Origin: a virus | Reading direction: 5' to 3' (one strand) | Length of the DNA stretch: 48,663 nt | Virus record (IMG/VR): IMGVR_UViG_3300042379_000679 | Shown: in pieces, positions 1 to 48,663 of the stretch | How the letters are laid out: each line of letters begins with the position of its first letter | Numbering within the stretch: the first letter of the stretch is position 1 | Position numbers and translations under genes: made by a program | The notes under the pieces: generated by a model | Told to the model about the DNA's origin: nothing | Databases searched by the model: none | Seen by the model: the letters and a program-made list of their open reading frames with translations, nothing else

Positions 1-374
1 AAAGCACCGGCCTGATCGGCCGGTGTGAAGTGGTTGAAGCTCAGAAAGCAAAGCACCGGCCTGATCGGCCGGTGTGAAGTGGTTGAAGCTCAGAAAGTAA
101 AGCACCGGCCTGATCGGCCGGTGTGAAGTGGTTGAAGCTCAGAAAGTAAAGCACCGGCCTGATCGGCCGGTGTGAAGTGGTTGAAGCTCAGAAAGCAAAG
201 CACCGGCCTGATCGGCCGGTGTGAAGTGGTTGAAGCTCAGAAAGCAAAGCACCGGCCTGATCGGCCGGTGTGAAGTGGTTGAAGCTCAGAAAGTAAAGCA
301 CCGGCCTGATCGGCCGGTGTGAAGTGGTTGAAGCTCAGAAAGTAAAGCACCGGCCTGATCGGCCGGTGTGAAGT
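1..374. repeat. Tandem array of a 49-bp unit, left part (7.6 units). It continues across the circular junction with 48292..48663.
   Basis: The unit AAGCACCGGCCTGATCGGCCGGTGTGAAGTGGTTGAAGCTCAGAAAG[C/T]A recurs with an exact 49-bp period. The only polymorphic base sits at 49,98,147,196,245,294,343 = C,T,T,C,C,T,T. The array breaks at 375. Each unit holds a perfect hairpin, CACCGGCC-TGATC-GGCCGGTG. Confidence 0.97.
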
Positions 375-433
375 TCACTTGCGTTTTGGTTGATTCAGCC
401 ACCATATCATAATCATCGACGGTAGACCGGCCA

Positions 434-464
434 CAATTATGAGTATTTCCGCAATTATGAGTAT
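434..464. repeat. Two direct copies of the 13-mer CAATTATGAGTAT, 18 bp apart
   Basis: Copies at 434-446 and 452-464, exactly identical. They lie between the stop of the 467..1300 gene and the tandem array. Confidence 0.8.
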
Positions 465-466
465 CA

Positions 467-1300
467 TCATTCCCCCAGTGTCCGATCATAGGTAAGTGGA
501 TTGACGCCCTTGATTCGACTCTTATCCTTTAAGATTAGGACCTTACCTTTATCGCGTAGAAACGTCAAGTCGTGATCATCCCCGTCAACAATACACAGTC
601 CACCGATTCCAGCGCGATAGACTCCAGAGACCCCAGACAATTCCTTATAGAGTGGTTTTGAGACTACTGCGCTACATCGGACGTTTTCAATCGTCGCTAT
701 TCTGTGGATATCCTCAAACGAATGTTCGGCCGCTACAAGCGAAAACGTCAAGTGATAGTTGATAGGTAAGACCCCAGAAACGCGCCGGTAGATTTTAGTA
801 TAGTCGTAAAATGTGATATCTGGACAATTTGCGAACAATTCGGGGTGTCTGATTTCATAGGCGATATCCGAAAAAGCGTTAAGTCTAACTGCGCCGGTCC
901 GGCCGGTCTTATCACACAGGCTCTGGAAATTGGTTAACTCTCTGGACAATTGCGCAATAAATTCAGACCGGAAACGAGAGTAGTAAAGCGTTCGATAGTA
1001 CTTACCTATGATTGAATTATCAAAACGATTCCTGCCGGCCGATATTCCGATACAATGTGTTTTACAGTGATTGTGCCTGGGACAGACATTAACTCCAGAA
1101 TGATCGGCCGGTAGAAGCGCAACATATGCGCTTCGATATTGTGGATAAAGTTTGTACGACTTTGCAAGTTTAGTGTTTTGAGTCTCTGCCGTACATAAAA
1201 TGGAATTCCTTTGAAAGTGCATGATCAGATCATGATCAGAGACCTCAGGTAAGGTTATTGCGCCGCCCGTATAGATTGATTGTGCCGATACTGTGGACAT
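467..1300 (-). CDS. GP88-like phage protein (Cys-cluster protein), function unknown
   Basis: 277-aa ORF. NTKLAKS...LLPADHSGVNVCPRHNHCKTHC (CP-x5-C-x3-C), VRLNAFSD and the C-terminal GDDHDLTFLRDKGKV resemble the GP88 family as I recall it. AGGA lies 9 nt upstream of the ATG. Confidence 0.75.
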   Translation of the reverse strand: MSTVSAQSIYTGGAITLPEVSDHDLIMHFQRNSILCTAETQNTKLAKSYKLYPQYRSAYVALLPADHSGVNVCPRHNHCKTHCIGISAGRNRFDNSIIGKYYRTLYYSRFRSEFIAQLSRELTNFQSLCDKTGRTGAVRLNAFSDIAYEIRHPELFANCPDITFYDYTKIYRRVSGVLPINYHLTFSLVAAEHSFEDIHRIATIENVRCSAVVSKPLYKELSGVSGVYRAGIGGLCIVDGDDHDLTFLRDKGKVLILKDKSRIKGVNPLTYDRTLGE

Positions 1301-3487: not shown

Positions 3488-3489
3488 TA

Positions 3490-4240
3490 TAAGGCTGAAT
3501 ATACTACTGAGTGGGATACTGAACAAAGTTATACTTTGCATTTTACGTCTGTAATACTTCAGAGACAGAAGACGACCTTTTCCCCTACACTACACCTGAC
3601 TCACATCTTGTTTCCTCTAGGCCTTGTATGAGAATCCTCATATCACCTATCAGAAACCTGTGAATCCTGATTCAACTCAACCTTAGACGTCATTTCCCAC
3701 TTAAGGGAACATTCCATCTGGCTGAAAGAATCTGGTAGTGGGCGAATACTAGGTCTGGTCAGCTTACCGATTAGACTCGTTTTAGTGTAGGGACCAGGTT
3801 GTTAGGTATCAACAGTGCCTGGATTCGATAGTGAGTCTACCCGTCAAGCCGAATGGCGATCCTCATTTACCACTGTCCAGTGCTGCACTCAGCGAGCGTT
3901 CGTCAAACGCCTTCCCCCTGGACACTCATCTATCACTCACTGACCCTTGCCGGAGGATCTGACCAACTTCCCAGTACTGGGTATGTGTGGCAAGGAAACC
4001 TGTACTACGATATTGATCGCGTTTTTAGGCTGTCAGCGTTTTCTTGTCAAAGAGTTGTGAGATATACGACGGATGCGATCCAGTTCGCGTATAGGCGGGT
4101 GATTGACTCACCACTTATCTTGCCTCCGTCACCCAGTTTAACCGTCGGTTCATGCTGGGTAGTAGATTCAGCTCTCGCTGATGAGGGGGTTATCGTATTC
4201 AGCGCAAGGCTTGGTCCGCTCTTTTTCAACCCTGATCTCA
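3490..4240 (-). ncRNA. Candidate non-coding transcript or leader, unclassified
   Basis: A consensus promoter at 4247-4275 fires into about 750 nt. On that strand there is no ORF with a ribosome-binding site, only ATG-ORFs of 23 aa or fewer once the one overlapping the -10 box is excluded. Confidence 0.25.
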
Positions 4241-4246
4241 CCATCA

Positions 4247-4275
4247 ATTGTACATCACCCTCATATCCATGTCAA
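4247..4275 (-). promoter_or_regulatory. Strong sigma70-type promoter pointing left into the ORF-free region
   Basis: The minus strand reads GTTGACA-17 nt-TACAAT. Confidence 0.55.
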
Positions 4276-4417
4276 CGACCTACCAAACGCATAGCTTGAC
4301 AGACTTACAAAAACGTATAAACACCATATATCCCACCCTCCCATTAAACTATAAGCCCTTACATTATAACGGATTGGCGAGTTTTTAAAAAATATGTACA
4401 TAAAATTTAGTCGCGTA

Positions 4418-4446
4418 TTGACATTCATATGTCGATAGACTAACAT
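4418..4446 (+). promoter_or_regulatory. Promoter of the rightward early operon (4493-7874)
   Basis: TTGACA-17 nt-TAACAT. The spacer contains TATGTCGATA, which is also found at 11481. Confidence 0.5.
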
Positions 4447-4492
4447 TCCTCCAAGGCTGGAACACATAAGAAACGTCACACAGGGAGGATCG

Positions 4493-4894
4493 ATGGCGAA
4501 CTCGCTCAAGTACTCAACAGAATTTAATCCAGGTCAACTGGCAGCTATGAAGGGCATCCTGAGAAAGAATGGATGGGAGACAGAGGATACGATTGTCAAC
4601 GGCATCGAACTCTATGCATTTGGGTATGGATATGCCATCGCTGACTGGAAAAAGATCTGGTCCGAAAAACCTTTCCCTGAAGACTTCCCTTATATACCGC
4701 TTCTCATGCTACCTCACCATAAACTGCTGGGAAAGATCCAGCACGACATTAACCATAATCCAGACCGCAAACGTCACATGGAGAAGATGCACGAAAAGGC
4801 CTACTTGACTTACGTTGAGTCTTACCAAACAGATTGGGAGTCTCAAGACTTGCTTTATAGATACAAAAAACTGATGAAAGAGGCTCAAGTATGA
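4493..4894 (+). CDS. Hypothetical protein (133 aa)
   Basis: GGGAGGA lies 4 nt upstream of the ATG. It is the first gene of a tightly packed operon. Confidence 0.8.
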   Translation: MANSLKYSTEFNPGQLAAMKGILRKNGWETEDTIVNGIELYAFGYGYAIADWKKIWSEKPFPEDFPYIPLLMLPHHKLLGKIQHDINHNPDRKRHMEKMHEKAYLTYVESYQTDWESQDLLYRYKKLMKEAQV

Positions 4895-5229
4895 GGTTCA
4901 ATACAAAAATACAGTTCACAACAGATCTCAGCGAGCCTGAGAAAGAGTATGTCAATGACTGCCTGATCTCACGCATGTATGAGTACTTCTCCAAAGAGTT
5001 CGAGACAGTGGCTCAAGTGGCAACAAAGTTTTGCCTGGATGGTAAAGGAGTCTGCCTGTTTGCTACCAGCTACAGGAACGAGATGGACGAGGTCATGATT
5101 ATTGGCGTTGAAACAAAGGATTTAGCCACAGCCAAGTATTTGCAAGACGAGTTCCATGAATCCATGCGTGAGTTTGCTGAAGAAGGTTCCGAATTTACAT
5201 CCTCCTGGATCAACCCAGAACTTAACTGA
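4891..5229 (+). CDS. Hypothetical protein (112 aa)
   Basis: ATGA stop/start overlap with the upstream gene. Confidence 0.75.
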   Translation: MRFNTKIQFTTDLSEPEKEYVNDCLISRMYEYFSKEFETVAQVATKFCLDGKGVCLFATSYRNEMDEVMIIGVETKDLATAKYLQDEFHESMREFAEEGSEFTSSWINPELN

Positions 5230-5238
5230 GAGAGAATC

Positions 5239-5463
5239 ATGATCAAGGCCACAACATATACTCCTGTTTACGACAGGACAAAAGAACAAGAAGACTCCCC
5301 AGGTTTCATCGATAAACGCACCTTAAAAATCGCCTGGTGGCTCCTGAAGGATCGTCGAGACTGGCTTGTCCATGGTGAATCACCTACAGGCTGGACTGAT
5401 AAAGTTGCCATGGCAAGGGAAGTCCAGAGAATCATGGATTTGATCGAGGAGCATTTCAAATGA
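5239..5463 (+). CDS. Hypothetical protein (74 aa)
   Basis: Operon context, with GAGAGA upstream of the ATG. Confidence 0.65.
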   Translation: MIKATTYTPVYDRTKEQEDSPGFIDKRTLKIAWWLLKDRRDWLVHGESPTGWTDKVAMAREVQRIMDLIEEHFK

Positions 5464-5606
5464 ACGCTGACGAAAAATGCCCTGACTGCGAAGAGGTTTG
5501 GGTGCTGTGTGAGTGCGAGGCTTATTGCGAGAAGTGCGGTAAGCACGAAGAAAAATGCCTGTGCGTAGATAACGAATGGGAGACCGAAACTGATGACGAT
5601 GAATAA
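5460..5606 (+). CDS. Cys-rich microprotein (48 aa), zinc-ribbon-like
   Basis: Not in the ORF track because it is under 60 aa. It has an ATGA overlap with the upstream gene. Translation: MNADEKCPDCEEVWVLCECEAYCEKCGKHEEKCLCVDNEWETETDDDE (8 Cys: CxxC, CxC, CxxC, CxC). Confidence 0.5.
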   Translation: MNADEKCPDCEEVWVLCECEAYCEKCGKHEEKCLCVDNEWETETDDDE

Positions 5607-5808
5607 AGACGAAACCCTGCATTCCCTGATAGGCATCCAGCCGAGACACCTGAGGTTGGCACAGTTCCACCTAAACAACTATTTCCGGTTGCTAAGTGAG
5701 CAGATGCAAGAAGGAGACGATTTCACAAAAACAACAATCTCGGAGTTACGGTATTTGGACCGTTTGATTTCTGGCATATTCGGAGACGATTTTAATGCGA
5801 GTTCCTGA
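5593..5808 (+). CDS. Hypothetical protein (71 aa)
   Basis: Operon context. Confidence 0.55.
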   Translation: MTMNKDETLHSLIGIQPRHLRLAQFHLNNYFRLLSEQMQEGDDFTKTTISELRYLDRLISGIFGDDFNASS

Positions 5809-6031
5809 ACTAAGTTGCGGCAAATTCCTTGGCTACCGCATTTTGTGTAGAGGCGGTCTTCAAATCTACCTCAGTTCGGTGGAAGGAGTCGTGACGGCAG
5901 ATCTGAACGATCTTCTAGATTTTGCTAAAAATATTGCCCCAAAGATGACATCGATATACGTTTACGAGTCTTACGAGGATCTTTACGCCTTGAGATACTC
6001 TCGCAAATTAGGCGAATGGAGTGGGACCTGA
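5795..6031 (+). CDS. Hypothetical protein (78 aa)
   Basis: Operon context. Confidence 0.55.
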   Translation: MRVPELSCGKFLGYRILCRGGLQIYLSSVEGVVTADLNDLLDFAKNIAPKMTSIYVYESYEDLYALRYSRKLGEWSGT

Positions 6032-6356
6032 TGACCGAGAACACATACAAGAACGAATTAAAATTCCCACAACTCTATTACTCGCAATGACAACGAGGTT
6101 AAAGGTGGACGAGAGTAGAGAACTTGTATCGATTGATCCCGACCTGATCACGATTAACTCTTTGACTGTAAACGGCATCACAATCGAACTCATGAAAGAG
6201 AAAGAGGAATGCCCACTAGGCATACCCTACATCCTTCGCACAACGCCGAGAATCATGACAGGTGAAGACCCGTGTTGGTTTGGGCAATATTGGAAAGCTC
6301 AAATACATTTCAAGCGAATGGTAAATCGCGTGTCACCAATGATTGAGAGGAATTGA
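6021..6356 (+). CDS. Hypothetical protein (111 aa, GTG start) carrying an ERIxIPTTLLLAM segment
   Basis: The N-terminal QERIKIPTTLLLAM is shared with the C-terminus of the 7106..7372 product. The nucleotide differences in the shared codons include two synonymous changes. Confidence 0.55.
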   Translation: MGPDDREHIQERIKIPTTLLLAMTTRLKVDESRELVSIDPDLITINSLTVNGITIELMKEKEECPLGIPYILRTTPRIMTGEDPCWFGQYWKAQIHFKRMVNRVSPMIERN

Positions 6357-6358
6357 AG

Positions 6359-6550
6359 ATGGACAAGAGCAGAAAAATTGTATTTCACATGGCTCGTAGA
6401 GCGATTTGGGCCAAAAGAGAGTTGCGAAAATTTGACAAGTCGGGATTTCAGAACCCGCATATGCGATTTGCGATTCACTTGGCATCCAACGAGGCTCATG
6501 AATGCTATCGGGTTGCGAAAATGGTTCTTAAAGAGGCGAAGTTTGACTAA
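6359..6550 (+). CDS. Hypothetical basic protein (63 aa)
   Basis: The ATG at 6359 lies 8 nt after GAGAGGA. The track ORF 6353 uses an upstream TTG. Confidence 0.55.
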   Translation: MDKSRKIVFHMARRAIWAKRELRKFDKSGFQNPHMRFAIHLASNEAHECYRVAKMVLKEAKFD

Positions 6551-6657
6551 TGGTTGACTCCGTACTGGAATGGGCCTCACTGATCTCCGCAATCGTTGGT
6601 TGCATGGTGACGTTGCTACTGGTCGTGATTGAGATATCTAATAGACCTCGAATATGA
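6550..6657 (+). CDS. Small single-pass membrane peptide (35 aa)
   Basis: Not in the track. Translation: MVDSVLEWASLISAIVGCMVTLLLVVIEISNRPRI. Its start overlaps the upstream stop (TAATG), and its stop overlaps the next start. Confidence 0.4.
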   Translation: MVDSVLEWASLISAIVGCMVTLLLVVIEISNRPRI

Positions 6658-7109
6658 AACGGAAGGTGATGAAGATGAGTGATAGCGACATGGCCTCAAA
6701 ACTGATTGCAGTGATTGTTGAACAACGAAACCAAATCGTCGAGCTAGAATCCCAGATTTCCAGGATAGACAAGGCCAATACAGATCTTCTGGGCCAATAC
6801 GTTGAGGCTGCGGAGCGAGCCAGAGAACTGAAGATAGAACTCAACGCAAAACCTGATCCACCAGAACCGGAGGATGCTTATCTGAGCGACTTTAGGGTGC
6901 TGAAAACGGCGATTGAGATAGTCTCGTATGCAATGGACTCAAGGTCTAGAGACTTTGAATCAGCAATCTGCACAGAGACAAAGCGTCTCATCAGAAGTTT
7001 CACCGAGAATGTGAGACTGTGGGATGGGCTGGACGATCTTGAACCGTACCTATGGAGCAGTTTGGGATCTGGAGAAGAACACCTTGTCGATAGGGAGTGG
7101 AAAAAATGA
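6654..7109 (+). CDS. Hypothetical coiled-coil protein (151 aa)
   Basis: Operon context. The start is uncertain, with in-frame ATGs at 6669 and 6675. Confidence 0.7.
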   Translation: MKRKVMKMSDSDMASKLIAVIVEQRNQIVELESQISRIDKANTDLLGQYVEAAERARELKIELNAKPDPPEPEDAYLSDFRVLKTAIEIVSYAMDSRSRDFESAICTETKRLIRSFTENVRLWDGLDDLEPYLWSSLGSGEEHLVDREWKK

Positions 7110-7372
7110 GCGAGGCTGAACAGCTAGAAATCGTCATCAGAAACCTTGAGACGAGGCTTGATATCGCCCGCAAGAACCTTGACAAATTGAACGTAGGCCC
7201 GATGACATCACCTGAGAAAGAACTACTAACACCAGAAGTCGTTGATGGATGGAAACGTGTTGCAACCGCGCAACTGGAGAACTATCGGGAACGAATTGTC
7301 ATTCCCACAACTCTTTTACTCGCCATGATCAACAAGATTCAGGCCAACGAGGCTAAAAATGAACATGGTTGA
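7106..7372 (+). CDS. Hypothetical protein (88 aa) ending in the RERIVIPTTLLLAM segment
   Basis: The ATG at 7106 lies 8 nt after GGGAG and forms an ATGA overlap with the upstream stop. Confidence 0.65.
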   Translation: MSEAEQLEIVIRNLETRLDIARKNLDKLNVGPMTSPEKELLTPEVVDGWKRVATAQLENYRERIVIPTTLLLAMINKIQANEAKNEHG

Positions 7373-7559
7373 ACGGACAATCGTCTACGGTATTCCGGCT
7401 GATTTCTATACAGTCGAAGAGACAAAGCTGTTGATGGACGATATCATCGGTCGAAAAAAACTTGATCAGGATAAGTGGGCTGAGATTATCAGGGATGCTC
7501 GCTCGAGAATGGCCGAAAAAGAAAAACCGAATCTCCCCTTGCGCCCTGATCATCCATGA
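7359..7559 (+). CDS. Hypothetical protein (66 aa)
   Basis: Operon context. Confidence 0.55.
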   Translation: MNMVERTIVYGIPADFYTVEETKLLMDDIIGRKKLDQDKWAEIIRDARSRMAEKEKPNLPLRPDHP

Positions 7560-7601
7560 GATAGAATTCATCCGTCCCTTAACACTCGAAAGGATAGAGA
7601 A

Positions 7602-7874
7602 ATGTCATACGAAGATGAGATCGAAGATAACGAAGAGTCGGAAAACGGATTTAATGTCCCTCGCTTCGATGAGGCTGAAACAGAAGAGTACATGACGATC
7701 TTGATCGACTCTGTTTTTACGCCCGAAAGCCTGAGGAAACTGGGCTTTTTAGCCTTGGAAGACCTGAGGGAGCAGTACAAAAAGGCGGGTGAATGGCCCA
7801 ACTGTGAGCTAAGACAGGGAGAAGACTTCGGGAAAAGATTGCTCAATCAAATCGCCTGGAAAATGAACATCTGA
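7602..7874 (+). CDS. Hypothetical strongly acidic protein (90 aa)
   Basis: AAGGA upstream. The N-terminus is MSYEDEIEDNEESENG. It is the last gene before the terminator. Confidence 0.65.
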   Translation: MSYEDEIEDNEESENGFNVPRFDEAETEEYMTILIDSVFTPESLRKLGFLALEDLREQYKKAGEWPNCELRQGEDFGKRLLNQIAWKMNI

Positions 7875-7944
7875 CTTGTCAGATCCTAATTTTGCGTGTA
7901 CAATATTTGCTCAGTCCTGGTCACGGACGATCAGAATCCATCAG

Positions 7945-7979
7945 CCCCTTGAGCTTGTTGCTTGAGGGGTCTTTTTTTT
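7945..7979 (+). terminator. Rho-independent terminator of the rightward early operon
   Basis: 10-bp stem CCCCTTGAGC/GCTTGAGGGG (two G-U pairs) with loop TTGTT, followed by T8. Confidence 0.8.
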
Positions 7980-8466: not shown

Positions 8467-9300
8467 TCAACTGAGAAGATCACGGGCAACCATGGGTTCT
8501 CTGGTAACGGTGTTCCGAAGTGATTGTTCAAGTATTTTCCATGCTGTTGCTGCCACAACCGGAACCTGACCGTTCCCAAGGGCTTTAAGCCTTCCCACCC
8601 TATCGGCCACCCCATGATCCAACCGACCCACAGAGGGTTCAGCTGACCACCAGTCTTGGATTCCTCTCTCTCTCTCTCTCTCTCTCTCGCAAAGACCTGT
8701 CTGGGCAGTTGGTCCAGCCGATTCCGTACAGTCCCGTCCTTGTTGATCGATGTGGTCTTCTGACCCGCAGTATCCTTCCAGTCCCGGCTGTTGGGAGTGA
8801 CCCACTTCTCTTTCGCACAAGATCCAGATGCGTTTTCTGAGGTGGTTAGCTCCACAGTCGGCAGCAGATAACACTGTCCACGCCGCATCAAACCCGAGGT
8901 CGGCCATTTCTCCGAGAACTCTGTCGAGTCCTCTTGAGGTAAGGGCTGGGACGTTTTCCAGGAAAACGAATCGGGGTTCCACTTCGCGAATGACTCGAAC
9001 GGCTTCAAAGAAGAGCGATGATTTTTCGCCATGTATACCTTCCCCCTTGCCAGCCAGACTGATGTCCGTGCAAGGAAATCCGGCAGCGATCACATCCACG
9101 TAGTTTCGCCAGCCTGTTGCGTCAAAGGTCTTTATGTCATCGTGGATATGCATCTCGGGGAGGAACCCATCGGCAATCCTCTGAGCCAGCACCTTGCGGC
9201 AATATGGATCAATCTCCACAGCACAAACAGGCGTATGCCCCAGTAGTAATCCACCAAGGATTCCTCCACCAGCCCCAGCAAATAGATGCATTTCCCGCAT
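8467..9300 (-). CDS. DNA (cytosine-5) methyltransferase
   Basis: Motifs: FAGAGGG (I), GFPCTDIS (IV), ENV (VI), RKRIWIL (VIII), then WWSAEPSVGRL...RLKALGNGQVP (X). GGAG lies 6 nt upstream of the ATG at 9300. Confidence 0.85.
   Translation of the reverse strand: MREMHLFAGAGGGILGGLLLGHTPVCAVEIDPYCRKVLAQRIADGFLPEMHIHDDIKTFDATGWRNYVDVIAAGFPCTDISLAGKGEGIHGEKSSLFFEAVRVIREVEPRFVFLENVPALTSRGLDRVLGEMADLGFDAAWTVLSAADCGANHLRKRIWILCEREVGHSQQPGLEGYCGSEDHIDQQGRDCTESAGPTAQTGLCERERERERGIQDWWSAEPSVGRLDHGVADRVGRLKALGNGQVPVVAATAWKILEQSLRNTVTREPMVARDLLS
8664..8688. repeat. (CT)12/(GA)12 dinucleotide microsatellite inside the methyltransferase gene
   Basis: 25 nt of perfect alternating CT. It encodes ERERERER in the methyltransferase frame. 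Confidence 0.97.
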
Positions 9301-9354
9301 GTGACACTCCAGTAGACCCTGTAAATATGTCAACGCAGAATATCATAATACATG

Positions 9355-10635
9355 TCAAACAGCAATCACTCTTCTCATATTACCGCATAAATGCGTGTAA
9401 CCTAACGAGATACTATCCACGCAGTCGTCATGTACATCCGCAGGAGTCCCAGTAAAGGAATCGATCTCCTCGAAGCATGCATCCGTCCAGCCACCAAGAA
9501 CATAGAAAATGTTTCCAGCTGATGCCGCGCGGCTAAAAGGGACTGCCCTTGTCAATTTGTTTGACCCAGGTGAACTCCAGGCAACACGCCTTCCGGCCAG
9601 ATTCTTCAGTTGATGCTGCAACAACCGCTTCCCAGCCGAGCCAGGCTCAACCTCAATTACAATCGTTGTTCCAGGTCCATCCTCATCCGATGTTTGCGAG
9701 ATTTTTGGATCAACGTCCTCAGCCGAATATTGCTGGCGAATCTGGTCAAAGATGATCACCTTCTCTGTCCCTGGAATCAGGCCCATCAGAGTCCCAACCG
9801 TGTAATCCGACCTTCGGCCCACAGTCGCAGCACAGTCCCAACTTCGGCACATAATGAGCCTCTCGGGTATCGGTCCTTGCCATGGTCTGATCCACGATGA
9901 CTTCATCAAAGCCCCGTCCGTATCGCAAAACAGCCCTTCAACTTCCTGTTTGTAGAAAGCCCCATCATAAGCAGCCTTAAGGCTTTGCACGAAGAAGTCA
10001 GGGTTGAACGTGTTGGAATATGATGGAGCATGGATCATCTCAGCAATGCCAGCCTGGATGGCTCGGTATTCCCACCTGTTTTTCCCTCGAGGGGTAAAAG
10101 TTGCCCATAACTTACCGGGATTCTTTCTTAAGCGGCCCAGCAGAACTTTATAGGTATCTTCATCGCAAAAGCTGGCCTCATCCATGTACACAGCCCCAGC
10201 ATTAGTCCCCCGCAGCCTGTCCGGCTTATCCGCAGATCTCCACAAAATTGTCCGGTCACCTTTGACCTTCGTTTCCATATCCGTTTTGTTGTGGCTCATG
10301 ATCAGGCCAGACTGACCGTAAAGCTCTTCAAACATACGGAACGTGGAGTCTTTGAGGATCGTAAAAGTCGGTGCAACGACAATCGTGAGCGTCCCTTTAG
10401 GCTGGTTCATAATCTCGATCACGCCAGCACGAGTCTTCCCAGCACCAACCCCACCCACAAAAAATTTCTGCTTCGATGGAGAGACCCAGAACTGCAACTG
10501 CTGTGGAGTAAAGGTACTTACATTATGTATCTGACGACGACCCGTCTTCTCCTTCCGAAGCTGCGAGAACAGGGAGTTCTGATTCATTCGTTCCAGCCGG
10601 AAGTCGTCCTGATCCATCGACATATTTTTTGACAT
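9355..10635 (-). CDS. terL: Terminase large subunit
   Basis: Walker A GGVGAGKT and Walker B VYMDEA. The C-terminal nuclease-type region reads SWDCAAT...DYTV...HDDCVDS. The ORF is trimmed to the ATG at 10635 (GGGGAA upstream). Confidence 0.9.
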   Translation of the reverse strand: MSKNMSMDQDDFRLERMNQNSLFSQLRKEKTGRRQIHNVSTFTPQQLQFWVSPSKQKFFVGGVGAGKTRAGVIEIMNQPKGTLTIVVAPTFTILKDSTFRMFEELYGQSGLIMSHNKTDMETKVKGDRTILWRSADKPDRLRGTNAGAVYMDEASFCDEDTYKVLLGRLRKNPGKLWATFTPRGKNRWEYRAIQAGIAEMIHAPSYSNTFNPDFFVQSLKAAYDGAFYKQEVEGLFCDTDGALMKSSWIRPWQGPIPERLIMCRSWDCAATVGRRSDYTVGTLMGLIPGTEKVIIFDQIRQQYSAEDVDPKISQTSDEDGPGTTIVIEVEPGSAGKRLLQHQLKNLAGRRVAWSSPGSNKLTRAVPFSRAASAGNIFYVLGGWTDACFEEIDSFTGTPADVHDDCVDSISLGYTHLCGNMRRVIAV

Positions 10636-11290
10636 TTTCGTTCCCCTGGTACTGCCTCGAGAGTTCTGAACTAATTTCTGCCAGCGTTTTCCCTGCGATT
10701 CGCTGCTCAACCTGGTCGTTCGACATCTGCCTGTCCCAGAACTGCAACTTGACCTCAGGTTTGGCGAATTCCATACCCCTGGTACGCTCAAGCCACCATG
10801 CCGCAGGAATCCAGTTCCCCTTCTTGGCTGCGTCCAGGATCACGTTTACACAAAGGTCTCGAGTCGCGTTCTGGGCATTATCAAAATCTATTTTTCGCTG
10901 TGGGTTCTTCTTCATGTACAGCCAGAGCGTTTTGCGATGCACGCCGATAGCTTTAGCGATTGCACTGATCTCATAACCCATCTTTGCCGACTCAATAATC
11001 TTGGCCCAGTGATTACGTATCTTCTTCTGAGGCTGATTGTTAGCCAATCCCTTGCGAGTCAGGAACGCCGGCTTCGTCGTCATCAATTCCAGATTGGCTT
11101 CAACGTCATCACTAAAGTCGTAACGAGTATCAAGATTAGGAACCTTAACAGACTTCTTGGGCTTAACTTTAGGAGTAGGCTCGACTTCGGTTTCGGTTTC
11201 GATCTCGGCTTTATGAACAGTTGTTTTCGGTGGTCGTCCACGCTTTTTAGGCGTTTCGCCGGATTCAGATGGGGCTGATTTCTTTGCCAT
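10523..11290 (-). CDS. terS: Terminase small subunit (HTH-containing)
   Basis: It lies directly upstream of terL. HTH segment ISAIAKAIGVHRKTLWLYMK, an AAWWLER motif and a basic N-terminus. The ORF is trimmed to the MAKKS start at 11290. Confidence 0.65.
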   Translation of the reverse strand: MAKKSAPSESGETPKKRGRPPKTTVHKAEIETETEVEPTPKVKPKKSVKVPNLDTRYDFSDDVEANLELMTTKPAFLTRKGLANNQPQKKIRNHWAKIIESAKMGYEISAIAKAIGVHRKTLWLYMKKNPQRKIDFDNAQNATRDLCVNVILDAAKKGNWIPAAWWLERTRGMEFAKPEVKLQFWDRQMSNDQVEQRIAGKTLAEISSELSRQYQGNENVKKYVDGSGRLPAGTNESELPVLAASEGEDGSSSDT

Positions 11291-13670: not shown

Positions 13671-14702
13671 TCAAGCTGGCTTAACCAGCCCCTTCGCTTT
13701 CATCGCCGACTCAGCCATGTACTCCTTGTCCTGGTGAACCTGTGAGTAGACCTTCATGATCATGGTTACGTCCCTGTGTCCCATCAGCTTTGCCAATGTC
13801 ACAGGATCAACCCCGTTTTGCAAAGCCTGTGTGCAGTATCCTTTACGGAATGCTCCAAGGTGAATCTTGACTCCAAACTTATTGCGAAGACGAATCATCG
13901 CATCCTTTACGGAAGTCTTATTCCACGGGTTGCCCTGTGTGTTGACCATAATTGGCCCCTCAGAGCGTCTCTTGGCATAATCCGACAGAATCTCCATGGC
14001 TCGATCCGATGCGATGTAGACCGTTCTGGCGTACTTCTTGCCCTTGGCCTCTGCCGCAGGGAACACGATCATTCGCTCATCCTTACGGAAGTGCCGAGCC
14101 TCGATCAGGACCAGTTCCTGAGGTCGCATACCTGTATCCCAGGCAAGAATCATAAGATCCTTAAGCGGAGACTCAGGGATGTTGGACTCGATAAACGACC
14201 ACTGCTCAGGCGTTATGTAATCTTCTCGGGCTTCAGGAGAACACTTTTCAAGATGCTCCACTGGGTCAGTCTCGATCAGCCTGTTTTTTTTGGCCCAGCT
14301 AAATAGCCTTTTGATAGCCCGTGCGAAGTTGTAACGGCTGTTGGCCTTCCATGTCCGCTGGCTGGAAATCATAAGAGAAATCTGGCTCAAGCTGACATTC
14401 TCTGCCACCGTATCTCCTTTCACGTACTGGGCTAACTTATCAAAATACATACCATACCACTGCCACGTTCGCTCGGAACGAGACGTTTTCATCTCCTCAA
14501 TGAAGGCATCACAGATGGTTTTGACCGTTGGCTTGTTCGATTCCTCAGGAACCCCACCAGCCATGATCAAGTGCCATTTGGCCCAAGATTCTGCCTTGCT
14601 TTCTGCCAACTTTATCTGCCGCTTACCAACTTGTAAGTACCACGCTCTACGTGATTTACGGTAGAACGGTTCATTTCGCGATTCCATAGCTTGTACTCGC
14701 AT
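13671..14702 (-). CDS. int: Tyrosine-recombinase phage integrase
   Basis: Box I DTGMRPQEL, HLGAFRKGYCT (H-x-x-R) and LMGHRDVTMIMKVYSQV (H...Y). It lies adjacent to the tRNA-derived attP. Confidence 0.9.
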   Translation of the reverse strand: MRVQAMESRNEPFYRKSRRAWYLQVGKRQIKLAESKAESWAKWHLIMAGGVPEESNKPTVKTICDAFIEEMKTSRSERTWQWYGMYFDKLAQYVKGDTVAENVSLSQISLMISSQRTWKANSRYNFARAIKRLFSWAKKNRLIETDPVEHLEKCSPEAREDYITPEQWSFIESNIPESPLKDLMILAWDTGMRPQELVLIEARHFRKDERMIVFPAAEAKGKKYARTVYIASDRAMEILSDYAKRRSEGPIMVNTQGNPWNKTSVKDAMIRLRNKFGVKIHLGAFRKGYCTQALQNGVDPVTLAKLMGHRDVTMIMKVYSQVHQDKEYMAESAMKAKGLVKPA

Positions 14703-17805: not shown

Positions 17806-18222
17806 ATGATGGATGCAGATCAGAAAATCAGAAATGCTTTTTCGGACGCTGAAAAGGCTGTACCAGATGCAGAATTGAAATACACGATTATCCGAGAGGC
17901 TTTTGAGTCTCACAAAGATGATGATGAACGACAGTACGAGTACATTTACGAGCGATTGGCGAAGCCTAAAAGGTCTGCTCTTGCCCGTGATATGAACGCA
18001 TGGTTATATCTACATAAGATAGCACATGAACTTCTGGCTCAGTCTCAGATCTGCTTACTTAATGCTGAAGGTGAAACACCTGGCCCACTACTTGCCCGAT
18101 TGCAACGCCCAGTGATTAGGTCGCCCAGGAACTGGAGGATTTGCGGCATCTGTGATGGGACTGGTGAAGACCCAACGATTGCTCATTGCAATGGATGCTG
18201 GGGACACGGGTATTATGTCTGA
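17806..18222 (+). CDS. Hypothetical protein with a DnaJ-type CxxCxGxG zinc motif pair
   Basis: The C-terminus reads CGICDGTGEDPTIAHCNGCWGHG. AGGAGG lies 5 nt upstream. Confidence 0.65.
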   Translation: MMDADQKIRNAFSDAEKAVPDAELKYTIIREAFESHKDDDERQYEYIYERLAKPKRSALARDMNAWLYLHKIAHELLAQSQICLLNAEGETPGPLLARLQRPVIRSPRNWRICGICDGTGEDPTIAHCNGCWGHGYYV

Positions 18223-20620
18223 GCTAACCTATTCTGCGTTAATGGATTGCGAGTTTTCAACTTATCCGTACCAGGATGAGGCGATTGATAAGATTAGGTC
18301 ATGGGTCTACGAGGATGATCATAAAGCTGGAATTCTCCAGATGGCGACCGGATGTATATCCGGTGATGCAATCGTGACTATTAACCGTGGAGGCAAGGGT
18401 GTTACTCGGTCTCTTCGGGATCACTTTAGGCTTCAGGCTGACCCAAGGGTCAAACCTCATGTAGTAAAGCGTGTCCGAAGTTTTAACGGTAAGCACGTTG
18501 AATGCAATGGATTCAGCCGTATCCAGTCCAGCGGGGTCAAGCCTGTTGTTAGGGTTCGATTTGCAAGTGGACGAGAACTCGTATGCACTCCTGATCATAA
18601 GATCTTGTCGTCGAATGGATGGGTTGAAGCAAAGGACTCGTCAGGCAAGAGTATCGTAGTCGAAGCAAGCCAACGCAAGTCCGGTGACCGGGAGCCGAAG
18701 CCTAAGAAGCGATACAGGCAAGTTAACAAACTTTACTATCACCCGTACGCTGGGAAATGCGTCTCGAACAGAAGAGGAAAGTCTCTAAGGCTTTATCGCG
18801 TGGCTTACCATAGGCTTGTGGTTGAGTCTGAAATGAATGAGATGCCCCTTGACAAGTACATTGAATGCTTGAGAAACGGAGACATTGGCAAGTCATGGGT
18901 TTATCTTGACCCAGCAGTAACCGCAGTTCATCACGTCAACGGAGATCATACTGACAACAGGAGCGGAAACCTGGCGATTATGAGTCATCAGGAGCATTGG
19001 TCTCTTGAAGGCAAACAAAGCAATCACCTGAACATCGGCAAAACGCTGGTTGAAACAGACAATGTCTTTGCCGTTGAGAATGCTGGCTGGATCGATACCT
19101 ACGACATCGTTAGCGTAGACAAGACAAGCAATTTCATTGCCAACGGAGTCGTTGTACATAACTGTGGAAAGACCGTAACCGTAGGTATTCTGATTCGTCA
19201 GTTGATTGAGGAGGGGTTTATCTCTCGAGCCTTGTTCGCAGTCCACCGGACAGAACTTGTGAAACAGGCAATAGACACGTTTGAATTGTGCGGGCTAATG
19301 GTGGGTCGTGAGCAAGGTTCCCATCACGGGTTTGCCCTAGGTGATCCGCATGTGGTTTGCACAACCATTCAGTCCATGACCAAGCGATGCAAGCGGTATC
19401 AGCCGGACGATTTCCAGTTGATCATCACGGATGAAGTCCATCACGCAGGAGAATCCAATAAGACATACTCATCCGTTTACGACCACTTCCCTGACTCAAA
19501 ACTTGTTGGGGTCACTGCAACGATTGATCGGCCTGACGGACAGAGTCTGAAGCGTTTCGAGGAAGTCGTTTACAGCTACTCGCTTTATGACGCGATCCAT
19601 GATCCTGCTGGCCCATTTTTATCACCTGTCAAGTTTGTCCGGTGTTCTCTGGGGGTTGACCTGAGGGGATGCAAAACAACGGGTAAGAATGGCGATTTCG
19701 CTCAGGGAGATCTTGGTCGTAAGATCCAGCCAGCCATCGAGCTATTAGCGAACGCGATCAGCAAAGAGATTGAGGACCGAAAGAAGATCATTGTCTTCAT
19801 GCCTGATGTTGGCTCGTCTATCGCGATGGCTGATGCCTTGAAGCAACTGGGACATGCTGCGGACTGGGTCTCCGGTGATAAGCCTGACCGTGATAGCACG
19901 ATACAGCGTTACAAAAACGGTCTCACAAAGATCCTTGTCAACTGCCAGATCCTCACCGAGGGGTTTGATGACAAGCCCACAGACTGTGTTGTTCTAAAGC
20001 CCACTCGAAGCCGGATCGCATACGCCCAGATGGTGGGTCGTGGTACGAGGCTTTGCAAAGATAAATCAGACTGTTTGATTCTGGATTTCTCACACACGAC
20101 AGACATGGATCTGATTGGGCCAAGCTCGTTGACAGATTGTGAGGAGGTTGATTCCAAGCGTGCTGAGGAGTTGGTCGAGGAGGGTGTTGATCTGTGGCAA
20201 GCTGTGGAGCGAGCCAAGACGGAACGTAAACAACGACAGGAGATCAAGGTTCCGGTTGCCAGGCTGGACATGAGTTATCGGCGGGTCGAGATTAATCCAT
20301 TTGAGCTTGCGGCTTCATTGGGTGTGTCCCGAGCCATGCTGACCAACGCCAATCGATTCGGAGAGCTTGCGACTCCCGCCCAGAAGGATTTTCTGAACAA
20401 GTCTGGGATGGCAGATGTCAATAACATGACCAAGCGTCAGGCTTCGCAGTTGATCGGCCAGATCATTGACAGACGAAACTCGGGGCTGTGTTCGATCAAA
20501 CAGTTGAACTACCTGATTTCGCTGGGGATGAAGCCTGAAAAGGCTCGAGGATTGCAGTTTGGACAGGCAGCAGAAGCGATTCAAAAGTACAGGTCGAATC
20601 AGGCTGGATCGCAAGAGTAA
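18215..20620 (+). CDS. SF2 (DEAD/DEAH-type) helicase precursor interrupted by an intein; the extein is about 531 aa
   Basis: The split Walker A, MATG|...|CGKT, is restored on splicing. Other motifs are DEVH (ITDEVHHAG), TAT (VGVTATIDR) and QMVGRGTR (VI). Confidence 0.88.
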   Translation: MSELTYSALMDCEFSTYPYQDEAIDKIRSWVYEDDHKAGILQMATGCISGDAIVTINRGGKGVTRSLRDHFRLQADPRVKPHVVKRVRSFNGKHVECNGFSRIQSSGVKPVVRVRFASGRELVCTPDHKILSSNGWVEAKDSSGKSIVVEASQRKSGDREPKPKKRYRQVNKLYYHPYAGKCVSNRRGKSLRLYRVAYHRLVVESEMNEMPLDKYIECLRNGDIGKSWVYLDPAVTAVHHVNGDHTDNRSGNLAIMSHQEHWSLEGKQSNHLNIGKTLVETDNVFAVENAGWIDTYDIVSVDKTSNFIANGVVVHNCGKTVTVGILIRQLIEEGFISRALFAVHRTELVKQAIDTFELCGLMVGREQGSHHGFALGDPHVVCTTIQSMTKRCKRYQPDDFQLIITDEVHHAGESNKTYSSVYDHFPDSKLVGVTATIDRPDGQSLKRFEEVVYSYSLYDAIHDPAGPFLSPVKFVRCSLGVDLRGCKTTGKNGDFAQGDLGRKIQPAIELLANAISKEIEDRKKIIVFMPDVGSSIAMADALKQLGHAADWVSGDKPDRDSTIQRYKNGLTKILVNCQILTEGFDDKPTDCVVLKPTRSRIAYAQMVGRGTRLCKDKSDCLILDFSHTTDMDLIGPSSLTDCEEVDSKRAEELVEEGVDLWQAVERAKTERKQRQEIKVPVARLDMSYRRVEINPFELAASLGVSRAMLTNANRFGELATPAQKDFLNKSGMADVNNMTKRQASQLIGQIIDRRNSGLCSIKQLNYLISLGMKPEKARGLQFGQAAEAIQKYRSNQAGSQE
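18353..19162 (+). mobile_element. Intein (270 aa) with an HNH homing-endonuclease domain, inserted in the helicase P-loop
   Basis: - Block A: CISGDAIVT.
- Block B: CTPDHKIL.
- HNH domain: HHVNGDHTDNRSGNLAIMSHQEH.
- Block F: TYDIVSVDKTSNFIANG.
- Block G: VVVHN, followed by the +1 Cys. Confidence 0.85.
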
Positions 20621-35056: not shown

Positions 35057-36397
35057 TCAAGATACCTTGATGAATTTGCCGTATTGTTCTTGGATCGTGT
35101 CTGCACCCCAACGCAAACGGAAGAGGTAAACACGGCGATTGTTCACGGCTTCGATTTCATTTAAGACCCGTACAGATAAGCCCATACGAATCGGCATGAA
35201 CACGCCTTGCAGCGATCCGAAGAACGCAACTGCGTTACCACTCGTACCCTGAAGAGGAGCGAACTGGCAGTAGCTGATTGGGAACCCGTCAATCGAGTCA
35301 GGAATCGGCTGGACGATGCCAGGGAAGTTCTGACCGCTCTGGAACAGGTACTGACCGTTGGACGCTTTGAACAGGCTCACAGTCTTCGCTGTTTGCTGGT
35401 GCATCACGAAGCTGAAGTTTGGCTGGGCGTATTGAGGCAGAATGCTGAACCGCATGGATTTAACCGTATCAGCGTCCAGCGTTGAGCTAGAACCAGATGC
35501 AGTCACGAAGCCGAATTTACCTGCCTCGCCACCCGAACTGCTGGAAATCGAGTTCCAGATACCCCGAGGTTGGCCTACACCCGTACCGTAAGCGAGGTGC
35601 TTTTCGTAGTGGAGATCAAGCCAGGTTTGCAACTCTTGATTGAAGTAGGATTCCAGATTGAATCCTGAGTCTTCCAAGAGCGTGTTGGACATCGAAATCC
35701 GGCCCATGTACTCATGAACTGGGATCGAGACTTCACCAAAAGTTGGCTCAAGGGAAGCACTTGGTGTTCCGGCTTCGCCTGTCCACATACCCTGAATCGG
35801 GCTGGTATAGACATCGTCGCGGAAGGTGGTACGCAGCATGACAACACGGTTGCTATTGGTGGTGATCTGACGAACACGACCACGAAGCGTTGTTGGGGCT
35901 GGCTTACGCTGAATGACTTCATTGAGCATGTCAGGTGGTACGAAATAGCCAGCACCTTCGTCGATGCCTTCGACCAGCGTCTTAAATGTCCGAGCGTAGT
36001 TGTTCTTGAGCTTGTCTTCACCGAAGTGGAGGAAAGCCTTGAAGGCTCGGGCGTATTCTGGAGTCGAAATCGACTTGTTTTGTTTCTCTGTCAGGATGCC
36101 CAGACCATCGTCTTGGACCTCACCTGAATCCGAGATCGTTGTGAACCCAGCAGAGCGTGTTGAGCCACTGTAAGGCGTGCCAACAGACTTGTTTGTCAGG
36201 TCGCGATAGGAATCGAGGTTTACGGAGTCGAGGGCGTCGGCTTCGTCGATTTTGGCTTTGAGCGTAGGCAGGGTCTCTTGCAAGATTGCCTTGTAGCGAG
36301 CTGTCTGGTCGTCGTTGCGATCTTCGTTCAACCGAAGTGCTTCAGCCTCAGCAAAGGCACTTTTGAACTCAGCACGCAATTTTGGCGATGCTGCCAT
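35057..36397 (-). CDS. Major capsid protein (HK97 fold)
   Basis: 446 aa with a coiled N-terminal delta-like region, directly after the S78 protease. Confidence 0.85.
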   Translation of the reverse strand: MAASPKLRAEFKSAFAEAEALRLNEDRNDDQTARYKAILQETLPTLKAKIDEADALDSVNLDSYRDLTNKSVGTPYSGSTRSAGFTTISDSGEVQDDGLGILTEKQNKSISTPEYARAFKAFLHFGEDKLKNNYARTFKTLVEGIDEGAGYFVPPDMLNEVIQRKPAPTTLRGRVRQITTNSNRVVMLRTTFRDDVYTSPIQGMWTGEAGTPSASLEPTFGEVSIPVHEYMGRISMSNTLLEDSGFNLESYFNQELQTWLDLHYEKHLAYGTGVGQPRGIWNSISSSSGGEAGKFGFVTASGSSSTLDADTVKSMRFSILPQYAQPNFSFVMHQQTAKTVSLFKASNGQYLFQSGQNFPGIVQPIPDSIDGFPISYCQFAPLQGTSGNAVAFFGSLQGVFMPIRMGLSVRVLNEIEAVNNRRVYLFRLRWGADTIQEQYGKFIKVS

Positions 36398-46594: not shown

Positions 46595-48097
46595 TTAGGA
46601 GACCTCCTCGATGTCTGTCCAACCCTCGCGTGACTCGTATTCTTCCAGTTCTGCCAGCAAGCTCACATAAGACTGGACTAAAGCCTTGTTCACCCCTGAT
46701 CGACTGGGAGACAGGGAATCGCTATTGCGTTCGCCCTCGATCTTGGACCGTTCACCTGTGCTGGCAGGAACCTTTACCGAGCCGATGTTATCGCCTTCAG
46801 AAACCGTTGTTTTAGCTGGATCAGCCTGGGGTAGAATCTCGTTGCGAATTTCATCCCTAGCGATCCCAAGCGAGTCAGCATCTGGTGAATCAGATTTGCC
46901 GTAGCCAACGATATCGCGAGACTCATTAATAGTGATAACTCCACCACCGAGAAGACGAATCGCACGATTGGCTGCAATCTGTTCACGGTCATCAAGCTCC
47001 TCAACTGGCGAATAATCAAATGTGAACTTGATTCGACCGGACCTCACGTCATCAGGATCTTCAAAGTCGATCAACAGCTGATGCGTCATCTCGTCCGCAA
47101 AAACCTTCTGCAACGGAATCAATCCGTGGACGTATGCTGCCCTGATGGCATCTGCGTAGGTTCCGTATGCACCCGTGTTGTCTGTGTTCAGCCCCAGAAC
47201 CGATGTGTTCAACCCCATTGCCGCGAGAACCGTAGCCTGTGCCGACTTGGGAATCTCTACCAGACCGATCTCTTCCGGCGTGAATCCCATCTTGTGCAGT
47301 TCGTAAGCACCCGTCAAAACGGTAGGGTCTCCACGCTGGTCACCTGTGAGGGCATCCTTGAGCCGAGATTTGATCGCCTTGGCGTCGTCCTCTGAGACCG
47401 TGAAATCACCCTTGGGGGTCGCGATAAGCCCAGGAACCGCAAAATTGCGAAGCAGAGAGGCTGTGTAGGTGGATGCCTCGTTTAAAACAGCAATCTCACG
47501 CACATGGGCGAGCAGAGGACTCCAGCCGACCCGATCCTGATCCATGTCGATATAACGACGGATGTGAATCACCCTGTCCGCAGGAACGTCCAGCATCTTC
47601 CCGTTGATGTTGTATCGCCAGGCTGTGAGGTAATCTGATCCGTCCGTTGGAAAGAGGGGAGAAACCTTATCAGCCCTCCAGATCTTCAACTCCACTGGCT
47701 CGCCCAGGCGATTCTTGATCTTCTCGATCCAGACATTGCCGTAACAGCTTGCATCCCTGACATATGCACCGACAAACGCTGCTTCACCCACATAAGGGTG
47801 AGGACGACGTAACAATGTCAATGCAGGGTGATTATGGATCGGATCTTCGATTCCTTCGTCATCCACTCGCACCACTTGTAGATTCGGGACGGACCAGTTT
47901 CTGGCAAGCCAGTCGATACCGGAAGCTACCGTGGAGTTCTTCCATAAACCCTGGATAAGCATTTCCGTGTAATCGTACGTTGTTCCTGGCAACCAAACGC
48001 TATAAGGGCGATATCCACCACCCAGCCCACCCCAACCGGAGTAGGGCGTTTTGCCGCGAAACAGCGATTTGAACGATCCATATAATCCCATACTCAT
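46595..48097 (-). CDS. Portal protein (HK97 family)
   Basis: About 500 aa with a portal-like layout. The ORF is trimmed to MSMGLYG, because the upstream extension KREKNKKQKK is the translation of an A/T-rich tract. Confidence 0.85.
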   Translation of the reverse strand: MSMGLYGSFKSLFRGKTPYSGWGGLGGGYRPYSVWLPGTTYDYTEMLIQGLWKNSTVASGIDWLARNWSVPNLQVVRVDDEGIEDPIHNHPALTLLRRPHPYVGEAAFVGAYVRDASCYGNVWIEKIKNRLGEPVELKIWRADKVSPLFPTDGSDYLTAWRYNINGKMLDVPADRVIHIRRYIDMDQDRVGWSPLLAHVREIAVLNEASTYTASLLRNFAVPGLIATPKGDFTVSEDDAKAIKSRLKDALTGDQRGDPTVLTGAYELHKMGFTPEEIGLVEIPKSAQATVLAAMGLNTSVLGLNTDNTGAYGTYADAIRAAYVHGLIPLQKVFADEMTHQLLIDFEDPDDVRSGRIKFTFDYSPVEELDDREQIAANRAIRLLGGGVITINESRDIVGYGKSDSPDADSLGIARDEIRNEILPQADPAKTTVSEGDNIGSVKVPASTGERSKIEGERNSDSLSPSRSGVNKALVQSYVSLLAELEEYESREGWTDIEEVS

Positions 48098-48291
48098 ATC
48101 ATAACATAAGCAGGTGTGCATAACAAGATGGGAGTGAGGGGGAGGCTTTTTCTGTTTTTTATTTTTTTCTCTTTTAAGAATTCTCGACAAAGCGCATGGC
48201 CGACACGCCTGGGGCCACGGCTCCGAAAAAATCGCGAAATTGTGTCACATAAACTAGGTGTCCATGTCATGAAAACACCCTGGAAACAAGT

Positions 48292-48663
48292 AAAGCACCG
48301 GCCTGATCGGCCGGTGTGAAGTGGTTGAAGCTCAGAAAGCAAAGCACCGGCCTGATCGGCCGGTGTGAAGTGGTTGAAGCTCAGAAAGTAAAGCACCGGC
48401 CTGATCGGCCGGTGTGAAGTGGTTGAAGCTCAGAAAGTAAAGCACCGGCCTGATCGGCCGGTGTGAAGTGGTTGAAGCTCAGAAAGCAAAGCACCGGCCT
48501 GATCGGCCGGTGTGAAGTGGTTGAAGCTCAGAAAGCAAAGCACCGGCCTGATCGGCCGGTGTGAAGTGGTTGAAGCTCAGAAAGCAAAGCACCGGCCTGA
48601 TCGGCCGGTGTGAAGTGGTTGAAGCTCAGAAAGTAAAGCACCGGCCTGATCGGCCGGTGTGAA
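48292..48663. repeat. Tandem array of the same 49-bp unit, right part (7.6 units)
   Basis: Same unit and period. The polymorphic base at 48340,48389,48438,48487,48536,48585,48634 = C,T,T,C,C,C,T. The window ends inside a unit. Confidence 0.97.
48537..48663. other. 127-bp terminal overlap identical to 1..127, indicating circular closure of the assembly
   Basis: Register and polymorphic bases match (48585=C vs 49=C; 48634=T vs 98=T), and both segments end in ...GGTGTGAA. No other register reconciles the two C/T patterns. Confidence 0.85.

Follow-up and report, generated by a model that had tools for sequence, protein, structure and literature searches.

The 48,663-nucleotide virus record IMGVR_UViG_3300042379_000679 (this whole stretch of DNA is called the window below) comes from a temperate tailed phage and carries, between a GP88-family gene and the portal gene, a tandem array of a 49-bp unit, each copy of which holds a GC-rich hairpin. 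Our analysis favours, with somewhat better than even confidence, the view that this array is a single intrinsic (Rho-independent) terminator module amplified in tandem. Such a module would close a minus-strand two-gene unit, made up of the GP88-family gene and a small gene for a 31-aa membrane peptide, and the array would separate or insulate this unit from the promoter region of the portal gene. The minus-strand order is GP88-family gene, 31-codon open reading frame (ORF), array, a conserved block of about 100 bp, an A/T-rich tract, a promoter-like site and the portal gene, and the features on which the argument rests are these:

1..374, minus strand: part of the array on the side of the GP88-family gene and the small ORF; 7.6 units, 7 of them listed as terminator-like
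48288..48663, minus strand: part of the array on the portal side; 7.7 units, with 8 terminator-like matches
375..470, minus strand: small ORF of 31 codons; product MMILIIAEILIIVAGLPSMIMIWWLNQPKRK, hydrophobic with a basic tail
467..1300, minus strand: GP88-family gene, 277 aa (PF17338, E 1.7e-25; phrog_1617), first of the two-gene unit
46595..48097, minus strand: portal gene (phrog_12, E 1.9e-46), the gene that comes next after the array

Tandem Repeats Finder detected the 49-bp period at both ends of the window, with 98–99% matches and no indels (7.6 copies, score 727, at 1-374; 7.7 copies, score 724, at 48288-48663). Bases 1-127 are identical to bases 48537-48663, so the ends of the window overlap by 127 bp, and with one copy of this overlap removed the two parts make up one array of 619 bp, or 12.63 units, with one variable base per unit in the order C T T C C C T T C C T T. 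Read on the minus strand, the unit is CTTCA-CACCGGCC-GATCA-GGCCGGTG-CTTT(A/G)CTTTCT-GAGCTTCAACCA, and the last unit on the portal side terminates in CTTTACTTGTTT, the tail motif common to the relatives described below. The 21-nt hairpin CACCGGCC-TGATC-GGCCGGTG occurs 16 times in the window, always within the array, and gave no match in 100 shuffles; a search of the whole window found no second copy of the palindrome outside the array. All units run head to tail in one orientation, as they do in the arrays of relatives, and on either strand the array region is predicted to fold far more stably than shuffled controls (z = -7.9 and -8.5). Every element of the original prediction's description (the 49-bp unit, the perfect 8-bp/5-nt hairpin, the 127-bp overlap and the C/T order) is present in the sequence, which confirms this description as accurate and far beyond chance; its placing of the array between a GP88-like gene and the portal gene likewise agrees with the profile matches given above.

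The hairpin of the window unit has 8 bp, seven of them GC pairs, a 5-nt loop and a folding energy of about -17.7 kcal/mol, and after every array hairpin the coding (minus) strand continues with the tail CTTTACTTTCT. A terminator scan requiring at least five T in 8 nt, a threshold that the tail CTTTACTTTC passes, picked out 15 of the 16 copies as terminator-like, all of them on the minus strand and none on the plus strand; the remaining copy sits at the edge of the window. The array hairpins therefore combine what is expected of a terminator, that is, a stable GC-rich stem with a short loop, a 3’ U-rich tract and a position after a stop codon on the same strand, and they are alike the other credible terminators of the phage, at 2049-2027 on the minus strand (AAGCCCAGC..GCTGGGCTT then CTTTGTTATT) and at 7944-7970 on the plus strand. 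The strength of a single unit as a terminator is uncertain because its U-tract is interrupted. A scan of both strands of the window showed no promoter-like site within the array or immediately upstream of it. Across the 11 hairpin types that we compared, energies range from -14 to -25 kcal/mol, with 6.5 T on average among the 10 nt that follow the stem and 2.4 A among the 10 nt that precede it, an asymmetry that fits the coding strand. Moreover, in nine relatives, whose sequences were read by eye, the first hairpin lies 2–9 nt past the stop codon of the small ORF.

We found 21 viral contigs with portals 72–100% identical to that of the window. Within the group at 92–100% portal identity, a tandem array is present at the same place and on the same strand in every contig that reaches upstream of the portal gene; the 12 further arrays of this group have a period of 46–50 bp, 3–7 copies and hairpins that differ. 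Examples of these hairpins, and the equivalents found at lower portal identity, are the following:

type B hairpin, minus strand: CACCAGCC-GATCC-GGCTGGTG
type L003 hairpin, minus strand: GCCCTGTCC-AGT-GGACAGGGC
type L005 hairpin, minus strand: GACCTGCTCA-GC-TGAGCAGGTC
type L017 hairpin, minus strand: GACCTGCCC-GCTG-GGGCAGGTC
type L009 hairpin, minus strand: GCCAGACC-CACC-GGTCTGGC
L019, portal 72% identical: a single canonical terminator with a 14-bp stem, AGACCCCGCTCAT..ATGAGCGGGGTCT, then TTTTTGTTTC
L268, portal 64% identical: a single hairpin, then TCTTTTAT
L269, portal 54% identical: a 49-bp array, GCCCTGCCA-CC-TGGCAGGGC plus TTTATCC, directly after a small hydrophobic ORF, with a scaffold gap inside
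L271, portal 49% identical: one good hairpin and one degenerate copy

The relatives’ hairpins are followed by the T-rich tails CTTTACTTTCT, CTACTTGTTT, TTACTTGTTT or TTCTCACATT, and the terminator of L019 begins 2 nt past the stop codon of a 27-aa hydrophobic ORF. These findings are most simply accounted for if the basic element is the intrinsic terminator of the unit of GP88-family gene and small peptide, amplified in tandem in many lineages. Two further searches added no array type: a scan of viral contigs with TACTTGTTT..TACTTGTTT returned mostly chance matches, with no new array type among the matches listed, and a metagenome scan with the conserved flank gave five loci, none of them with a new type.

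Since MAFFT gave no single register for the differently sized hairpins, stem pairs were counted by script from the stem base. All 77 of the outer stem pairs counted across the 11 types are Watson-Crick pairs, with no G-U pair among them; in the control, in which the 3’ partner was shifted by one or two positions, 34/77 and 22/77 still paired. At five of the seven stem pair positions three or four pair types occur, the other two being nearly invariant C-G. The stem arms are homologous, with 3–8 of 8 positions in common, and the differences between them are compensatory. What is conserved is the structure together with its strand-specific tail, and not the sequence of the hairpin. The GATC in the loop, the CCGG and GGCC sites of the stem and the direct TGAAG-N4-TGAAG, which had been put forward as key features of the unit, proved to be confined to hairpin types A and B; GATC occupies the homologous position in these two types only and is absent from the L003, L017, L009 and L269 types. 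Individual units also depart from their arrays: one unit of the L012 array (257-535) has an inverted loop (GGATC for GATCC), which suggests intra-palindrome recombination, plus an A-to-G change giving a G-U pair on the coding strand, and two units of the L018 array (3489-3800) carry a T-to-C change, which gives C-A, a mismatch, on the coding strand and G-U on the opposite one.

The small ORF that precedes the array is conserved, translationally coupled and on the strand of the array. The start of the small ORF overlaps the stop codon of the GP88-family gene (ATGA), and its own stop codon abuts the array, with the first hairpin 6 nt further on. It is kept in the eight homologues aligned, with a mean column identity of 79%, and it is a real gene, because the differences fall mostly at third codon positions (220, 78 and 310 at positions 1, 2 and 3). 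The ORFs drawn through the array had been dismissed as artefacts, and they are, except that this one real 31-codon ORF touches the array. The AlphaFold2 model of the GP88-family protein (mean pLDDT 83.9) is an alpha/beta barrel with weak fold matches to radical-SAM-type barrels (TYW1, QueE, LIAS), and the family has three invariant cysteines (C73, C79, C83). Sequence searches of NCBIfam, PADLOC and PDB gave no match for this protein; the model suggests that it may be an enzyme and not a DNA-binding protein. Alleles of the gene, 18–27% identical at the lowest, swap at the locus among phages with nearly identical portals, and hairpin types reassort with these alleles: type A occurs with alleles that are 27% mutually identical, and the L003 type with two allele groups.

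From this arrangement we infer how termination, ribosome masking, insulation and amplification would proceed. The RNA of each 49-nt unit would form a GC-rich 8-bp hairpin followed by CUUUACUUUCU, and RNA polymerase would be expected to release there. The ribosome terminating on the small ORF would mask the 5’ arm of the first hairpin, 6 nt past the stop codon, while the copies 49 nt downstream would escape masking and be free to fold. Such an effect has precedent at terminator tR2 in E. coli, where shortening an upstream stop codon's distance from 28 bp to 5 bp reduced termination from about 90% to less than 10%, an effect of ribosome masking (PMC4824070), and clusters of hairpins that follow stop codons are reported to be common termination units (PMC8355165). 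A need for several copies is plausible because the first hairpin sits in the footprint of the terminating ribosome; moreover, each copy would be mediocre, given its interrupted U-tract, and several in series could give a tight stop. The copies probably arise and are homogenised through replication slippage or unequal recombination between units. The spacer of the window unit (GAGCTTCAACCACTTCA) is similar to the small ORF at its 3’ end (AATCAACCAAAACGCAAGTGAACTTCA), a resemblance that fits an origin by local duplication between short direct repeats.

The array shares much with described intrinsic terminators, including tandem terminators and hairpin clusters (PMC8355165): a GC-rich stem of 8–14 bp, a short loop, a T-rich tail on the coding strand, a position directly after the last stop codon of the unit and a stem that is free to vary as long as pairing is kept. 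At the same time, it is unlike the usual case of one or two unrelated hairpins in having 3 to at least 12 near-identical copies at a fixed period of 46–50 bp, with interrupted U-tracts and with units that are homogenised within each genome yet differ between close relatives. Several observations weigh against the terminator account. The interrupted U-tracts (CUUUACUUUCU; in the L003 type CUACUUGUUU) mean that single units may be weak. Termination leaves unexplained why 3 to at least 12 nearly identical copies are retained and why the period is held at 46–50 bp even where portals are only 54% identical, and it likewise does not explain the lack of any G-U among the 77 consensus stem pairs, which would also fit a dyad-symmetry constraint acting on DNA. 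Finally, hairpin types vary among phages with near-identical portals and reassort with the GP88 alleles, so that the identity of the hairpin could matter.

These points leave some weight with explanations for which hairpin identity counts. One other explanation of the array is a cis-acting DNA site. Under this explanation, which we consider unlikely, a dimeric protein would bind the palindromes, present in many copies, in their double-stranded form, at a pac or terminase site, a centromere, a set of origin iterons or a transcriptional roadblock. The dyads are indeed perfect, with 0 G-U in 77 stem pairs; homogenised tandem multiplicity, differing between related elements, is typical of iterons and of partition centromeres such as parC of R1 and parS of P1; and hairpin types differ among phages with 92–100% portal identity and reassort as cassettes, much as specificity determinants would. 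The pac site of phage P1 consists of clustered TGATCA/G hexamers and is Dam-dependent; A-type units share with it TGATCG, in the loop, and many repeats, and the TGATCG/GGATC of the A and B types is reminiscent of these hexamers. However, the palindrome sequence, GATC and the CCGG/GGCC sites vary or are absent in the homologous arrays of close relatives, the coding strand carries the T-rich tail in every case, and the palindrome has no second copy elsewhere in the genome. At this site two of the more distant relatives possess one hairpin each, with a T-rich tail, and that of L019 is a canonical terminator. The array is not near the terminase genes, the large terminase (TerL) gene lying about 9 kb away, and no Rep or Par gene adjoins it; its neighbours are the GP88-family protein, the 31-aa peptide and the portal, and the GP88 gene, whose product is modelled as a barrel-type enzyme, shows no co-variation with hairpin type. 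With its integrase the phage is integrative and probably needs no centromere. The proposal of a cis-acting site is supported in its general part, in that this is a selected non-coding element whose position, strand and architecture are kept in all relatives examined that reach the site; the candidates it named, a pac or terminase site, an origin or a centromere, gain no support. A related possibility, to which we also give a low probability, is that the array is a specificity element with hairpin identity under diversifying selection, for instance a multi-hairpin RNA or DNA platform that would titrate or recruit some factor of the host or of the phage (a defence nuclease, RNA chaperone or antiterminator, for example); the perfect dyads, the cassette-like reassortment, the 46–50-bp period and the maintenance of multiple copies are what speaks for it. 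That the unit is instead a passively acquired host palindrome, of the repetitive extragenic palindrome (REP) or bacterial interspersed mosaic element (BIME) type, is very improbable. The array does share GC-rich palindromes in intergenic DNA with such elements, and on the plus strand of some types GTAG or GTAA directly precedes the GC-rich palindrome (L003/L018: GTAG-GCCCTGTCC...), which we take to be REP-like. Unlike REP/BIME elements, the units stand strictly head to tail at one locus and never alternate, their position is fixed in all relatives, and the spacer within the unit looks derived from the 3’ end of the local small ORF (TCAACCA...CTTCA). The phage itself has no dispersed copies, blastn of the unit against 50,697 phage and 72,556 plasmid records gave no match, and a degenerate hairpin searched against 185,579 species genomes gave, among the matches listed (at least 120), single scattered matches mostly in taxa known to be high-GC, with no arrays and no multi-copy genomes.

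The array might also encode a functional multi-hairpin RNA, which could act as a decoy or a sponge or be processed into pieces of 49 nt, with the antitoxin RNAs of type III toxin-antitoxin systems, phage pseudo-ToxI mimics and repeat-derived anti-CRISPR RNAs as possible models. Stem covariation and folding far above that of shuffled sequence on both strands would agree with such an RNA, and the array shares with type III antitoxin arrays (ToxI, CptI, TenpI) and pseudo-ToxI the non-coding, head-to-tail, near-identical units of a few tens of nt and their presence in phages; the unit length of 46–50 nt together with this near-identity is a likeness to ToxI/CptI-type arrays. We nevertheless regard an RNA of this kind as quite unlikely. 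No Rfam family was found above threshold, permissive thresholds giving only sub-threshold, generic hairpin-like matches to anti-hemB, and no CRISPR direct-repeat family matched at E up to 10 on either strand or at gathering thresholds. Unlike ToxI-type arrays, this one has a terminator-like hairpin in every unit, so that most transcripts should stop within the first units, and it has no promoter-like site inside or just upstream. The gene downstream is the portal gene or a homing-endonuclease-like insert, and not a toxin gene of the ToxN, AbiQ, CptN or TenpN type; complementarity of the unit to the rest of the genome is not above chance. The type III toxin-antitoxin idea was rejected on the identity of the downstream insert in some relatives, and a search of eight neighbouring proteins against PADLOC found no defence-system family, the sole match being a weak homing-endonuclease one to the insert. 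A sponge for CsrA was also considered and set aside, GGA being absent from every loop and unit on reading the sequences. The multi-hairpin RNA among the earlier candidates comes nearest to what we find, in the plain sense only that the units score as terminators on the strand of the flanking genes. Lastly, it may be that only one or two copies matter and that the long array is an assembly path through the repeat graph, a neutral and unstable slippage product, or both. We hold this to be improbable as well. In its favour, the overlap of the window ends lies inside the array, which contains 196 repeated 127-mers and a 293-bp exact internal repeat, the same phage assembles elsewhere with 3, 4 or at least 7 copies, many relatives’ contigs end in the array, and one scaffold has a gap there; against it, arrays of 3–7 copies bounded by unique sequence on both sides occur in at least 10 contigs from different samples, one contig (L283) repeats the first six variable bases of the window order independently, and arrays recur in a lineage with 54% portal identity.

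The copy number itself is variable. Each of the 196 repeated 127-mers occurs 2–3 times, and the 127-bp overlap, typical in length of an assembler k-mer and probably just that, sits within the array; because of this, the number and order of units are not fixable from a k-mer graph alone. The 12–13 copies given earlier can be counted in the window (12.63 units), but the figure is one possible path and is not reliable. A GP88-family protein identical to that of the window is encoded on at least 17 other contigs, and four of these (L276, L277, L281 and L283), with flanks identical by eye, represent the same phage:

L276 and L281: 3 hairpins each, with unique sequence at both flanks
L277: 4 hairpins, in an order that is the shortest path in the window’s own k-mer graph
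L283: at least 7 hairpins, ordered as in the window; this contig breaks off within the array

For its first six variable bases, the window order is independently reproduced in L283. Another contig, L278 (48,192 bp), also terminates in the array, many relatives have contigs that begin or end there, and the scaffold of L269 has its N-gap inside it; at the same time, the circular join of the window agrees with the gene order of relatives. At this locus, then, assemblies of the phage group break, collapse or close falsely, and circularity calls and genome lengths of these contigs therefore need care. One further irregularity lies at L012 1-101, where an inverted 101-bp portal fragment, 96% identical to window 47934-48034, stands beside the end of the GP88-family gene, probably as a result of chimeric assembly or of rearrangement at the repeat.

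Between the array and the portal gene lie three features:

48194..48291, minus strand: conserved non-coding block just past the array, with GGACAC/GTGACAC motifs and two boxes, TTTCGCGA and GTGTCGGC
48146..48178: A/T-rich tract beyond the conserved block, towards the portal gene; also present in relatives
48098..48126, minus strand: promoter-like site, TTGTTA, a 17-nt spacer and TATGAT, with TG before the second hexamer

The conserved block is 75–92% identical in close relatives, and most relatives, down to a portal identity of 54%, retain its two boxes TTTCGCG and GTCGGC (alignment A2). Its layout is TTTCGCG(A/G), about 30 nt, GTCGGCA(T/C)CCCC and the A/T tract, followed in close relatives by TTATGTTATGATATG. 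The block with what lies downstream of it looks like the control region of the portal operon, the block itself being possibly a late promoter, an activator site or a packaging signal. The promoter-like site (TGTTATGAT), of which CTTATGTTATGATATG is kept in close relatives, ends at the base directly preceding the annotated portal start codon, and a second ATG follows 6 nt further, so that the portal mRNA could be leaderless. In L003 (2718-3548), as well as in L004, L009, L011, L012 and L014, the conserved block and the portal gene are separated by an inserted 276-aa gene that has an A/T-rich region of its own upstream; this insert, about 920 bp in some relatives and absent from the window, looks by its sequence like a homing endonuclease of the HNH/AP2 type, for which the sole database match is a weak one to a PADLOC homing-endonuclease family (E 0.0038). 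In L019 and L020, repeats of 8, 16 and 24 bp (ACATATGA) come immediately before the conserved block.

Other landmarks of the phage are as follows:

9355..10791, minus strand: TerL gene
11576-11647: tRNA
13671..14702, minus strand: integrase gene
18152..20620, plus strand: helicase gene
35057..36397, minus strand: major capsid protein gene

A megablast search of both window ends against GenBank phages gave no match, and the nearest cultured portal is 28–32% identical; all 34 portal homologues that we collected contain PF04860. The packaging and head module is split, with TerL and a C5 cytosine methylase gene (8467..9333, minus strand) apart from the portal gene. Between TerL and the portal lie a plus-strand block of about 12 small genes (3853-7970), closed by the strong terminator at 7944-7970, and further small minus-strand genes. 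Upstream of the GP88-family gene, a stretch of about 780 bp free of ORFs (1301-2078) is dense in short direct repeats: GTGTCACT x6.5, GGCAGA x3 and runs of GCTGGC(C) (1427-1465, 1516-1572, 1609-1619, 1645-1673). Equivalent 8-bp repeats occur at the same place in relatives (ACACAGTG, GATACAGTG; in L271 GACACACT), and the region may be an origin or a regulatory region. Its GTGTCAC motif recurs just downstream of the array, at 48242-48248.

If the array were a specificity or decoy element, it would be considerably more interesting. As an amplified terminator, which we think the better reading, it would not be a new kind of biology; it would be a clean natural case of a terminator amplified into a homogenised tandem array, with stepwise compensatory evolution of the stem across a phage family, and it would be useful for phage genome annotation and for understanding the insulation of late operons.

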